Shown here piece by piece: positions 22,601 through 35,674 of a DNA stretch of 64,000 nucleotides. The notes below the pieces were generated by a model. The model saw only the letters and a program-made list of their open reading frames with translations, was not told the origin of the DNA and did no database searches. Numbering within the stretch: the stretch's first letter is position 1; each line of letters starts with the position of its first letter. The DNA is taken from contig NW_026920673.1 of the NCBI RefSeq assembly GCF_032062105.1, positions 1 through 64,000 of the forward strand, given 5' to 3'. The translations under genes were made by a program, and so were the position numbers. The stretch comes from Saccostrea cucullata. Taxonomy: Eukaryota.

Positions 22601-23319
22601 AAAGCGCACTTATTCAGGGAAAAGGTTTATGAAATTATCAGAGAGTTACATGTAATAAATTTATTGTAGCAATTCAATACTTGTATAATCAATATAATTT
22701 TTATAGAAACGATTCCTTTCCATTAGTTAGAGATTTATTCCTTCCCCCAGTCTCCACTAAATTCTTCACCCCCGAGTGCCACACACTTATCTTGAAGTCT
22801 CTCCTCTTTATTTGAGGCGGAATTCTCCGAAACATTAGAGTGTCTGGAGCAAAATCATATTTAGAAGTCCCTAACATAAGTCAAACTAGTGCTAATTGTA
22901 ACGGGAACCGTTACAGATGTTCCCCAAACGCTCCCCAACTCCCTTTTGGTACCATATTCCCTGTAAGCTTCATTAAATAAGACAAATTCTGGTAATTTAG
23001 ACTTAAACAAAATTTTCACAGAAGGATACCAATTATCTTCAAATTTTAGCATTGCACCCGTGCGCATGTGAATGCATGTGTGTTATGACCATATCATCTT
23101 GTCTACACTATCTATATATTTAAATATACTATATATCAAAGCATTCAGTCCAAAAGTATTAAAAATAACTCATTTAAGTGTATTTTTAATTTCACTCATT
23201 CCAAATGCACGCACGCACGTGCACGTGCATGATGACCATACCTTCTTGTAGGAGTTCCATATATATATGTATGTTCTGAATCCCATCCTGTTTGGTTGAA
23301 AAACAAGAGAGTTATAGCC

Positions 23320-26300
23320 ATTTCAAGTTTCAGCCAATCAGATTGCAGCACACGTGCATGCTCGTGATTTCATGAATTTTTTTTGTATATCATATTGCAG
23401 GATATCCTAATGTAAAACTATGTTTTAAGTTTCAAAGCATTTCGTCAAAAAACAAAGGGGATGTAGCCATTTAAAGTTTCAGCCAATCAGAATGCAGCGC
23501 ACGTGCATGCGCGTGATTTCTTTCATTTTTCTGTATATCGTATTGCAGGGTATTCTAAAGTATGGCAATGTTTTAAATTTCAAAGCATTTTATCAAAAAA
23601 CAAAGGAGATATAGCCTTTTAAAGTTTCAGCCAATCAGATTGCAGCACACGTGCATGCGCGTGATTTCTTGATTTTTTTTTTTTTTTTATCATATTGTAG
23701 AATATCCTAGTTCATGACAATGTTTAAAATTTCAAAGCATTTCGTCAAAAAACAAAAGAGATATTGAGATTTTTGTTTCAGCCAATCAGAGCGAAGCTCA
23801 CGTGCACGCGTGAGTTCGTGCTAATTTGATAGTGTCATGATATTAACACTATTAATATATCTTTATGTAATGAGTTTCAAAGCATTTAATCAAAAAATGT
23901 AAAAAGTTATGGCCATATTAAGTATATCAGTCATTTCACTCAATTCACGCGCCCGCACGTGCAGGCGTATGCGCGCAAAATGACCTTCGTTCCGCACACC
24001 TACACTACACACCCATTAACCCTAAAAAGGTTTTAACTTAGTTTGGTGAACAGTTTCTGAGAACACTTCCGGACAAAAAAGTACCGGAGAAGAAATAAGA
24101 AGAAAAAAGAATAATAATAATAATAACTAGTGCTAATTGTAACGGGAACCGTTACAGATGTTCCCCAAACGCTCCCCAACTCCCTTTTGGTGCCATATTC
24201 CCTGTAAGCTTCATTAAAAAAGACAATCTATGCATTTTAGACTTTAACAACGTTTTCCCAGAAGGATATCAATTATATTCAAATTTTAGCATCGCATGTA
24301 AATGCATGTGCGTTATGACNNNNNNNNNNNNNNNNNNNNNNNNNNNNNNNNNNNNNNNNNNNNNNNNNNNNNNNNNNNNNNNNNNNNNNNNNNNNNNNNN
24401 NNNNNNNNNNNNNNNNNNNNNNNNNNNNNNNNNNNNNNNNNNNNNNNNNNNNNNNNNNNNNNNNNNNCATTCAGTCCAAAAGTATAAAAAAAAACACTCA
24501 TTTAAGTGTATTTTTAATTTCACCTGTTCCCAATGCACGTGCATGATGACCATACCTTCTTGTAGGAGTTTTTTTTATATTTATCTATGTTCTAAATCCC
24601 ATCCTGTTTGGTTGAAAAACAAGGGAGTTATAGCCATTTCAAGTTTCAGCCAATCAGATTGCAGCAAACGTGCATCCGCGTGATTTCATGAATTTTTTTC
24701 TATATCATATTGTAGGATATCCTAATGCATGACTATGTTTTAAATTTCAAAGCATTTCGTCAAAAAAACAAAGGAGATATAGCCATTTAAAATTTCAGCC
24801 AATCAGATTGCAGCACACGTGCATGCGCGTTATTTCTTGAAATGTTTTGTATATCATATTACATGATATCCTAATGTATGACTATGTTTTAAATTTCAAA
24901 TTATTTCGTCAAGAAACAAAGGAGATATAGCCTTTTAAAGTTTCAGCCAATCAGATTGCAGCACACGTGCATGCACGTTATTTCTTGAAATGTTTTGTAT
25001 ATCATATTACAGTATATCCTAATGTATGACTATTTTCTAAATTTCAAAGCATTTCGTCAAGAAACAAAGGAGATATAGCCTTTTAAAGTTTCAGCCAATC
25101 AGACTGAAGCACACGTGCATGCGCGTGATTTCTTGAAAAGTTTTGTATATCATATTACAGGATATCCTAATGTACGATTATGTTTTAAATTTCAAAGTAT
25201 TTCATCAAGAAACAAAGGAGATATAACCTTTTAAAGTATCAGCCAATCAGATTGCAGCACACGTGCATGCGCGTGATTTCATAATTTTTTTTCCATATCA
25301 TATTGTAGCATATCCTAATTCATGACTATATTTAAAATTTCAAAGGATTTCGTCAAAAAACAAAAGAGATATTGAGATTTTTGTTTCAGCCAATCAGAGC
25401 AAAGCGCACGTGCATGCGCGTGGGTTCCTCCTAATTTGACAGTGTCATATTATTAACACTATTAATATATACTTATGTAATGAGTTTGATAGCATTTCAT
25501 CAAAAGATGTAAAAGTTATGGCCATATTAAGTATATCAGTCATTTCACTCATTGCACGCGCCCGCACGTGCATGCGTGTGCGCGCAAAATGACCTTCGTT
25601 CCGCACACCTACACTACACACCTATTAACCCTAAAAAGGTTTTAGCTCAGTTGGGTGAACAGTTTCTGAGAACACTCGCGGACAAAAAAAGTACAGGAGA
25701 AGAAATAAGAAAAAAAATAATAATAATAATAACTAGTGCTAATTGTAACGGGAACCGTTACAGATGTTCCCCAAACGCTCCCCAACTCCCTTCTCGTGCC
25801 ATATTCCCTGTAATTTTCATTAAAGAAGGCAAAATCTATGCATTTAAGACGTAAACAACGTTTTCCCAAAAGTATACCAAGTATTTCAAATTTAAGCAAT
25901 GCAGGCGTGCGCATGTGATTGCATGAGCGTAATGACGATATCATCTTGTCTACACTATTTTACTCATATGCACGTGCACGCACGTGCATGATGACCATAC
26001 CTTTTTGTAGGAGTCCATTATGTCTGTCTATGTTCTTAATCCCATCCTGTTTGGTTGAAAAACAAGGGAGTTATAGCCATTTAAAGTTTCAGCCAATCAG
26101 ATTGCAGCGCACGTGCATGCGCGTGTTTTCATGACAATTATTATATATCTTATTGTAGGACATCTTAAAGTATGCCTATGTTTTAAATTTCAAAGCATTT
26201 TGTAAAAAAACAGAAAAAATATACAGATTTTTGTTTCAGCCAATCAGAGCAATGCGCACGTGCTCGCACGTGCATGCATGTGAATGGTGATCATACCATC

Positions 26301-32724: not shown

Positions 32725-32757
<33 letters not shown>

Positions 32758-35674
32758 GAAGAATAACAAGAAGGTCTTCCGTTGGAGACGGAAGACCTTA
32801 ATAATAATAAGAAACAGAGTAAAAACAATATGTTCCCCAACTTCGTTTGGGGAACATAATAAGAAACCGAGTAAAATCAATATGTTCCCAAACTCCGTTT
32901 GGGGAACATAATAAGAAACAGAGTAAAAACAATATGTTCCCAAACTCCGTTTGGGGAACATAATGAAGCTGAGTGATATATAAGTCACCAACTTTCACAA
33001 ATAAACGGTCAAATTTGCGCTCCCGCATGCTCTTGCCAGATATTGCAGAAGTGTTCATGTATTTCTAGGACGAGTTCCGAGCTGGGAAACGAGTAACAGT
33101 AAGCTGGGATATCACTGTTTTCCGTCGTAAGTGAATTTAGGATTATTTTCATCTCAATTACTGATCAGGTCAACGAACATTGCAAATTCCGCTTCGAATT
33201 CTTCACCCCCGGGTGGCACCATTCCGCGCCCCCATATGTGGGGTTATGCACGGTGGTTACACTAAGCTATCTTTCTTGAGTAATATTAATGATCCATACA
33301 AATTATGTTTTCAAAAATGTTTAAAATTTCAATCGTATTTCAATTTCCAACTTTTAATCTTTAATTTTTTTTTTCACGTTTGCGTATCCATCCAATATTT
33401 TGGAATTTAGACAAAAATTCTTCATCTGAGATCTTTAAAATATAATATGGGCCTAATCAAATAATGACTGGAAGATGGTGTTACAATTAATATATACAAT
33501 AATGTTACAATTAATATATATCCTTAGACCGTTTTGGAGTTTTGTCCGTAATTGAACTGAATGTCCCAAAATATAAACTTCATGGATTTTTAAAAAATCA
33601 AAGCATGAAAAGTAACTTCCGCATTTGATATTTTGTTTAACTCTTTTTTGGTGATAAGCAGAAATATTTTGACAAAACGTAGTCGATTGTGCGACCACAA
33701 ATCATTCTTTTATACTGTTATATCATTACTTTTGCTCTCTAGGATATTTTGACCTTCCTACCCCCCCCCCCCTCTCCCCAATGCACTTATTTTAGAAAAG
33801 GATGTTAAAACCCTTTTACTGATGAGTACCATTGACAATCTGTTTTAAAAAAGCCTTTATACATTTATGCTAATTGTACATGGACATGCAGGTATCTGGA
33901 CCCCAGAACTTAGTTGTAGAAGTGAACACGCCAGTGGCAGATCTTGTACATTGTGTCGCTGAATTTTTCACTGTATACAGTAAATATCAAACATGGACAG
34001 TTCAACCAAAATGTATCCTAGACTTTTCATGCAAGTATGAATAATAATATTTCATATACAAGTTTACGCGTTTTCTCCAGTACATGTATAGAGTATAGAA
34101 AAGATGAAAGGTCATGAGGAAAGGTAGTACACGTGACCCCTTATAGTAACGTCTGACGACTATGGGGGGAATACGTCTGATTAATGTCTGAAGAATTTGT
34201 AGTTAAACTGTCAAGGGTTCCAAGACAATGTCTATAAACTTCTATTTGGATTTCTATATCCCCAAAAGAAATTTCCTCGGCAATTACCAACGTAAAATGA
34301 AATTGGAAAAACTTAATGAAAGATTGTCTGATGCTGCAGAAATCTCACAATCTTTGGATTTCATCCGTGTTCTACAACTGTCATTGGAATGTGAGGTTTA
34401 ATCGCCATCTGCTGTAAAGTTTGAACGTGTTAACACCGTTTCTTTTAGAGTAAAATTCCTTGTAACCCTGATGTAAAAAGTATTAGTCACGCACTCTGGG
34501 TTTTTATCAAGAACTTTAATCGAGCATTCGCGTCGTCTACTTAAATTCGTGATTGTCGAGTGTCAGTCTGTTCAGACGAAACATTGAAGTTGCTTTTCGT
34601 TATAAAGCTTTGTATACAATCTAGAAAATATGTCGACAGTGCAATGATTGAAATTTTTTTCATAATGAAAAATATACATAACAGGTGCACGTCTATGTTC
34701 CGACTTGCAAATCTATGAGCACATGAAACCATTTCCCGCTGATTTTTGCGTGCATCTTGTGGGAGCGTATAACAAGAACAGATTGCATCGCTAAAAAATG
34801 TTCCGTGTATTGATGACAAGCAATTGCAGAGTATAGACGAACTCTCACCCTAGTCTCTCCCAAATACCACAGAACTTTTACACCATGGGCGTGATATGAA
34901 GCTGACAAAAACAATACAATCCACCGATCGATCTAGCGGACTTGGCCAAAGTTAACACAACTTCCCCTTGTCAAAGCCCGACATTTCTGCGATTCCAGGA
35001 GATACATAAAAAATATACACACCTCAAACTTGTATAGGGTCAAGTTACGAGGTCAAATTATACAAACAGAAGATGAGGGAAACATGGATCAATATAACGA
35101 AGACTAGCATTAGAAGATAGGGGAACTATAACAGAATTGTGAATCGAACACACCCAGAATCAAGGACGGGGCATGTTTGCTTAGAGAAAGACTGATCACA
35201 TATATATTTAGTGACTGGAATGCAAAAATATTTCATGCATGGGCCATGGGCGCTGGCTATCCTTTACAATAGTCATAGAGCTCAAGTCCAGGAAATTTCA
35301 TTTAATAAAGGGAGAGAGAAAAATGTGATTACATTTCAATTTTATTGCTTATCTAAATACGTTAACTTCACATCTAATTTTGCAAACTTGCATAGGACCA
35401 TATTCCTCTAACCTTTTCTTAAAGGCTAGAGCGGTTATGATATAATAATATGCACAAGTAGATTTTTTTCGTCGTTTACAAAATGTAGTTGATGAGCGCC
35501 TTTGATAAATCATTCATCAAAATTTCATTAAAAAATTATGTTGATTCAGATATGTCTGTAGCTAGACCGTGTTTTCAAATATGGTACCTAAAAGACATAT
35601 ATTATGTACAGATATAATGCAAGGTCTTTTTCTATTTTATGAAGGGACATTAGAATTTTATGGACAATCAAATT

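Follow-up and report, generated by a model that had tools for sequence, protein, structure and literature searches.

In a 64,000-nucleotide window from Saccostrea cucullata (contig NW_026920673.1, positions 1 to 64,000 of the forward strand), positions 22886 to 32963 are occupied by six non-autonomous Helentron/Helitron2-type elements (HINEs), a known element class, nested one within another on the minus strand. The elements fall into three families and are named here from the outside in as A1, A2, A3, B1, B2, and C (Table 1). Along the plus strand, six bodies in the order A, A, A, B, B, C are followed by six hairpin heads in the mirror order C, B, B, A, A, A. An earlier note on this DNA had described the same arrangement, and pairing heads with bodies from the inside out rebuilds six complete elements of 1293, 1658, 1207, 2255, 2697, and 968 bp.

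Each of the first five bodies runs into an (AAT)4-6 tract, with the next body immediately after it. The C element itself is intact, with a shorter, degenerate, and unoccupied tract. The earlier note had given a span of 22885..32962 and an insertion distance of ∼50 to 60 bp; we place the edges at 22886 and 32963 and the insertion points 52 to 67 bp from the 5′ end of the host element. Each hairpin stem is a copy of the subterminal inverted repeat (subTIR) that lies 30 to 40 bp inside the opposite end of its own family. The hairpin stack folds with a z score of -13.1 (0/100 shuffles folded equally well). The chance of the mirror family order is 1/60, and that of all five insertions falling in the tract of the newest host is 1e-8 to 5e-8 under uniform AA/AAT targeting.

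All eight junctions of the two nests in the window have the form A[TTA...CTAG]TT. Read on the minus strand, an element consists of 5′-TTA with a hairpin of the subTIR and its inverted repeat (IR) partner, a T-rich spacer, a (TTA)n tract, the core, a tandem array, the second subTIR, a palindrome, and CTAG-3′. Occupied hosts rebuild to 6 to 8 TTA units, whereas unoccupied C and D2 (the inner element of the second nest) have at most 3 clean units. This difference would arise if long tracts attracted more insertions or if tracts grew upon insertion. A tandem-repeat scan returned arrays of 148 bp (A), 437 bp (B), and 52 to 63 bp (the head stack), and TRF found no array in C.

Table 1. Coordinates of the nest, its host repeat, and the second nest; bodies begin with CTAG on the plus strand
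Feature	Position	Strand	Details
Host repeat, left part	22735..22885	.	Broken by the nest
A1 body	22886..24126	-	Outermost; 3′ CTAG, 3′ palindrome (22897-22915), 3′ subTIR, 148-bp array, core, body-side part of (TTA)n
A2 body	24127..25732	-	Colinear with A1 to the left and right of its N gap (24320-24467)
A3 body	25733..26881	-	
B1 body	26882..29073	-	437-bp array; Box 5, 38/42
B2 body	29074..31707	-	437-bp array; Box 5, 37/42; 3′ end differs from B1 at 3/45 bases, one within the palindrome
C	31708..32675	-	Innermost, intact, 968 bp; 5′ hairpin 32644-32674; Box 4, 45/53; Box 5, 37/44
B2 5′ head	32676..32738	-	subTIR and IR hairpin (32708-32736), T-rich spacer, head-side tract part; Box 4, 46/53
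B1 5′ head	32739..32801	-	Same sequence as B2 head; hairpin 32771-32799, identical to that of B2; Box 4, 46/53
A3 5′ head	32802..32859	-	Hairpin 32829-32858
A2 5′ head	32860..32911	-	Hairpin 32881-32910
A1 5′ head	32912..32963	-	Hairpin 32933-32962; outer edge of the nest
Host repeat, right part	32964..33255	.	
Paralogous host-repeat copy	17194..18134	-	Lacks the nest (empty site); 95-99% identical near the junction; no target duplication
Second nest	58644..60776	-	D1 (body 58644-59638, head 60710-60776) holds D2 (59639-60709)

Element identity, edges, and assembly

The assignment to HINEs is based on several features. A subTIR of ∼11 to 17 bp near both ends, with its 5′ IR partner, is present in all eight elements of the two nests. 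A short palindrome lies behind the 3′ subTIR, weakened in B2 by a substitution, and the elements have a microsatellite behind the 5′ module, the (TTA)n tract, as well as central tandem repeats, the 148- and 437-bp arrays of A and B. The target is T-rich, with TT on both sides at 8/8 junctions, and carries no duplication at the empty paralog for A1; for the inner elements, a short duplication could be hidden in the tract. The nest elements lack coding capacity: only three stop-to-stop frames of at least 120 amino acids occur in the nest, one over the N gap and two over the head stack.

B and C belong to the published Box 4/Box 5 group, matching the 53-bp 5′ box (Box 4) and the 42-bp 3′ box (Box 5) at 84 to 90% (Table 1). 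A (34-36/53) and D (40-41/55-56) are partly box-like and were not assigned to that group. Because the B and C ends match the boxes in the same orientation, the stacked hairpins are 5′ ends and not 3′ ends; the earlier note had described them as element termini.

Two other classes were considered and rejected. Canonical Helitron1 (HLE1) elements would be expected to start with 5′-TC and to have no terminal inverted repeats, whereas these elements begin with TTA and carry subTIRs; the two classes nevertheless have the CTAG-3′ end in common, as well as a target that can be read as A^T. Classical satellite DNA does not fit three unrelated short arrays (148, 437, and 52 to 63 bp) situated in elements or their ends, with no long head-to-tail array of a single monomer. 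The idea that such nesting is a route to 10-kb satellite-like blocks is likewise weak, as the sequence of the block is not uniform and tandem repetition is confined to the internal arrays and the head stack.

The nest interrupts a host repeat, a paralogous copy of which lies elsewhere in the window without it. Comparison of the window with itself identified this empty site (region 17892-18134), which joins 22885 to 32964 exactly and without duplication, and thereby fixes the outer edges of the nest. Together with the eight junctions and the family ends, the empty site bears out the proposal that elements inserted in the same orientation, and across families, at the AAT tract.

A second nest, with no gap, supports the same architecture: D1 holds D2, to which it is 85% identical, and two bodies pair with two heads. 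Head and body counts are equal at both loci (6:6 and 2:2). Neither this nest nor the empty site had been listed in the earlier note. D2 is located in a TTC/T-rich part of the D1 tract and is flanked by a 9- to 10-bp near-repeat, possibly a short target duplication. Overall, 6/8 AAT-type elements of the window are nested. A further HINE, at ∼37039-38870, is un-nested. It has the subTIR/IR of Cg_HINE_4 (Table S2 of PMC7492417), its microsatellite contains GC, and its array has a period of 168 bp; the paralog of its insertion site at 207-640 is empty.

An assembly artefact at the N gap or in the repeats could be suspected, given the 148-N gap inside A2, the very high copy number of the families, and the lack of a contig bridging the stretch, but we consider it very improbable. 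A2 and A1 are colinear across the gap; ∼52 bp fill the same interval in A1, so that ∼52 rather than 148 bp are missing from A2. The empty paralog carries the two outer flanks joined to each other. Bodies are 80 to 89% identical within families and share no exact stretch longer than 92 bp, which argues for distinct copies rather than a collapsed or doubled assembly, and the second nest contains no gap.

We also aligned short-read contigs from 4 of 20 listed sequencing runs (best share, 0.42) at 90% likeness to 25450-33400, a stretch that runs from the last part of the A2 body, beyond the N gap, into the right flank. In these contigs, a B body is joined to a single head, from 29075 to 32685 (X1, side 41) and from 29056 to 32677 (X2, side 25, short). 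Tract-length variants occur at head-to-head junctions, namely, +3 at 32672 in 3/4 runs and +3 at 32798, -3 at 32799, and +3 at 32907 in 4/4 runs. These variants suggest that stacked heads occur at other loci, although short contigs ending in AAT flanks could mimic them. A hint of an A element within a C-like host (X8; two contigs, agreement of 0.7) was too weak and was not used.

Target preference in a related family

We scanned metagenomes for B/C-type 3′ ends and recovered 54 loci, most with a 3′ end variant unlike that of the window. Loci L010 and L041 were dropped for flanks of <40 bp, leaving 52; L051, which is at the same site as L026, was also dropped, and 45 non-nested sites remain. 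A core-module profile gave eight matches in 121,744 bp of flank, four of which end <70 bp from the insertion (P = 5e-5; E values of 6.5e-12 for L004, 1.6e-6 for L044, 0.012 for L028, and 0.034 for L022), and L029 and L037 were added to the nested set by eye. At L004 (junction 4002, oriented), the tract of an A-like host holds a B-type element, which repeats the cross-family arrangement of B1 within A3, and L044 (junction 616, oriented) abuts a collapsed B-type head, not a tract. Insertion into the tract of another HINE was found at 5/52 loci (Wilson interval, 4 to 21%), probably an underestimate because repeat-in-repeat junctions assemble poorly.

At the 45 non-nested sites, A on the plus strand is enriched out to about position -20 (33/45 at -7, 38/45 at -8, 36/45 at -13, and 36/45 at -14, versus ∼0.35 at 14,680 control sites), defining a ∼20-bp T-rich, (TTA)n-phased 3′ flank. 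Matches to the AAT phase averaged 5.47 of 10 positions, compared with 3.33 in controls (P = 3.5e-14). Free AAT tracts (at least 9/10 matches) were hit at 3/45 sites versus 0.027% of controls, an enrichment of ∼250-fold, so a head is not needed. Helraiser also prefers ∼20 bp of AT-rich DNA, mainly in the 3′ flank (PMC4778049).

An additive matrix trained on the 45 non-nested sites alone assigned 45 to 91% of the target weight of each window element to its own 5′ head tract, which is the best such site in the element, and placed all six inner junctions within the top 0.1% of the 14,680 control sites. Because this general preference fits an element's own tract, neither site nor orientation requires self-recognition, and the strand asymmetry of the target accounts for the shared orientation of the nested elements. 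We conclude that most of the apparent self-targeting is general target preference, of which the elements carry a near-optimal copy. The strong self-targeting proposed in the earlier note should be restated in these terms, since ∼46/52 insertions of the related family lie outside HINE ends and yet show the same T-rich, (TTA)n-phased preference.

Depth of the nest and order of events

Overall, the locus is a real HINE nest that likely reflects a preference for T-rich A^TT sites, a hotspot in each element's own tract, and one more factor for depth. An autonomous RepHel transposase encoded elsewhere would insert elements at easily melted T-rich A^TT sites, and each new copy would bring a fresh hotspot, located 50 to 70 bp from the 5′ end on the inner side, that accepts newcomers in a single orientation. 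Reaching a depth of six in one line may, with less certainty, call for an extra factor: ready-made composites could move by read-through of inner 3′ terminators, or an intact head could be worth more than a split tract.

Several points weigh against this explanation. The search pattern fixed flank positions -1 and -2, and the matrix is based on 45 sites of a B/C relative in other assemblies, its application to A and D being an extrapolation. For the two junctions at the outer edges, matrix scores are only modest (top 6% and 11%), and none of the contigs in the four compared runs spans the whole nest, leaving the assembly unconfirmed by reads. The B1 and B2 heads are identical (57/57), compared with 187/200 in the adjacent core. 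The probability that in-place growth always proceeds into the newest element is 0.0004 to 0.005 (eight matrix settings), because the body-side parts of split tracts stay good matrix targets; split tracts hold 52 to 83% of the matrix weight at the last two insertion steps. A toy model (559-Mb genome, 5,000 to 40,000 copies, a tract worth 5 or 12 kb, six runs per setting) yielded an average of 0.0 to 0.5 purely linear six-chains per genome in 15/16 settings and 3.3 in the one setting that combined 40,000 copies, a nested share of 25%, and split tracts treated as inert. Because the window had been chosen for its striking look, the improbability of the linear chain carries less weight. As modeled, preference alone would seldom yield a purely linear six-deep chain; a contribution from composite movement or from docking at intact 5′ ends is probable.

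In the docking scenario, the transposase would bind a resident element at its intact 5′ subTIR/IR hairpin and insert into the melted adjacent tract, with sequence preference secondary; good targets would then be limited to the newest, still unsplit element. The purely linear chain is in line with this, given the matrix weight on split tracts and the need for inert split tracts and about a quarter of copies nested in the only productive toy setting, as are the tight 5′ offsets, the large nested share of AAT-type elements in the window, and the duplicated 5′ pieces of 31 to 85 bp in FoHeli (PMC5148889). Headless AAT tracts are nevertheless hit far above control, most sampled insertions lie outside HINE ends, and the window was picked for its look; we therefore regard docking as the leading mode as rather unlikely. 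A possibility that we rate somewhat higher, while still short of probable, is that the nest was assembled inside out: composites, beginning with B2(C) and continuing with B1(B2(C)), would have been copied whole, the inner 3′ terminators being bypassed each time. Such copying would make the linear order automatic, and the C insertion may then be the oldest event; it is compatible with a preference-driven nest and alters only the chronology. Bypass of the 3′ end has been shown for Helraiser (PMC4778049), composite FoHeli elements with several 5′ ends have been argued to move (PMC5148889), the 3′ palindrome of B2 is mutated, and the head-to-head junction variants occur at high summed contig depth. 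On the other hand, the intact terminators of C, A2, and A3 would need to be bypassed, and copying that ended at the first terminator should produce an excess of heads over bodies, whereas the counts are equal at 2/2 loci. A second copy of a composite did not turn up, though no search aimed at one was made. The earlier note's ranking of A as oldest and C as youngest is thus not established: nesting dates an element only against its own host, and composite movement would reverse the order.

Part of the stack could also have arisen by tandem duplication or homogenization (unequal exchange or slippage), with fewer true insertions, for example, A(B(C)). The identity of the B heads would fit such a history, as would the common stem, 1 bp shorter, of the A1 and A2 heads and the scoring of the stack as 63- and 52-bp tandem repeats. 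We find it improbable, however, since the bodies differ by 11 to 20% and in array structure, heads are more conserved than bodies in every pair (47/49 and 47/48), and separate duplication of heads and bodies is unlikely to have kept the counts equal at both loci. In addition, A2 departs from the other A copies in the spacer of its head and likewise in the core next to it (54/60, versus 60/60 between A1 and A3). Integration of circles by homologous recombination was rejected by reasoning, as it would give head-to-tail tandems and not a mirror order.

Published relatives and other features of the window

The closest counterparts of B and C are Pacific oyster Helitron-N3, -N4, -N28, -N29, -N31, -N32, -N35, and -N40_CGi, described as members of the Box 4/Box 5 group that carry CgiSat repeats, including 437-bp monomers (PMC8268682). 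The B and C ends match both boxes in the same orientation, and the B array shares the 437-bp period of CgiSat02/03, a likeness in length only; A and D are more distant. Judged by repeat content alone, the host would probably be an oyster. That study scored boxes as present or absent only, and its main text does not contain the word "nested." The wider Cg_HINE, HINE, and DINE-1 elements are non-autonomous Helentrons that resemble the nest elements in their 5′ subTIR, IR, and microsatellite, central array, 3′ subTIR and palindrome, and T-rich target without duplication (PMC7492417 and PMC4067079). They differ in that all 11 Cg_HINE microsatellites of Table S2 contain G and C (GTCY and similar) and do not resemble the target (PMC7492417), whereas the (TTA)n of the nest families does; here, moreover, 8/8 junctions have A ahead of the 5′ TT and a CTAG end, readable as T^T or A^T.

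Stacked 5′ ends are known from other Helitron2-type elements that inserted <100 bp from the 5′ end of another. FoHeli of Fusarium oxysporum has several 5′ termini from self-insertion (PMC5148889), and Xenopus HelenXT233 has two left ends (PMC11417382). As described there, several 5′ ends accompany one 3′ end and nesting was inferred, whereas the nest reported here keeps six bodies with their 3′ ends, from three families, at a microsatellite target that fits a measured preference. Tandem arrays of truncated Helitrons in plant centromeres and dimers of transposable elements with site preference (Xiong 2016 and McGurk and Barbash 2018, via the review PMC12628747) are similar in that site preference or rolling-circle copying piles up elements, but they are head-to-tail rather than nested in mirror order. 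Complex oyster Helitron loci have been mentioned (PMC12628747 and PMC11136912). We found no multi-deep, multi-family HINE nest in a (TTA)n tract in the literature searched; Repbase and Satovic-Vuksic and Plohl 2021, which lay outside the search, may describe such nests. Two scans of viral contigs gave 0 matches each to A ends and B/C ends. A stacked-B-head pattern at 29 loci in prokaryote genome contigs showed no BLAST likeness to the elements and was discarded as chance.

The element class and the kind of event are therefore known, and what is new is a testable link between the microsatellite of an element and its target. If the HINE-borne microsatellite is linked to the place of insertion, nesting would be expected in (TTA)n families but not in GTCY families; the only GTCY-type HINE of the window is un-nested. 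According to PMC4067079, target choice by the Helentron/Helitron2 transposase has not been worked out biochemically, and this locus and the flank sample provide a measurable target profile. More speculatively, and in our view doubtfully, bivalve HINE families may have evolved a landing pad in which (TTA)n beside the 5′ hairpin fits the transposase target and the intact hairpin makes the site favored, so that unrelated families chain last-in. If true, this would amount to a heritable safe-harbor strategy and would reveal how a eukaryotic HUH transposase chooses its targets. Such nests will mislead oyster repeat annotation and satellitome counts.

Both B elements contain, at 28538-28600 and 31170-31230 on the minus strand, a stretch that we take to be tRNA-like because it includes a GTC triplet and motifs resembling A and B boxes; neither ARAGORN, which reported no tRNA, nor Rfam called it, and Rfam returned nothing at gathering score and one chance-level match (E = 0.91). 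Inside the empty host-repeat paralog lies a miniature inverted-repeat transposable element of ∼480 bp (17414-17891), presumably hAT-like, whose terminal inverted repeats are 8 bp long and whose target duplication is of the same length. The two host-repeat copies (17194-18134 and 22735-33255) are inverted to each other and bracket a long interspersed nuclear element (20152-22725), which we assume to be RTE-like, with a TAAG-repeat tail. The 128-bp direct repeat at its sides (91% identity) is possibly a long target duplication. A retrotransposon at 4894-14237 has long terminal repeats that are >99% identical, frameshifted gag/pol frames, and extra frames after pol (11601-12967), one with short repeats and what we take to be a BTB/KCTD-like end. 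Two further minus-strand features were labeled by eye, a B-box/NHL-repeat-like frame of 583 amino acids at 15129-16880 and a dystroglycan-like exon of 762 amino acids at 40012-42300.

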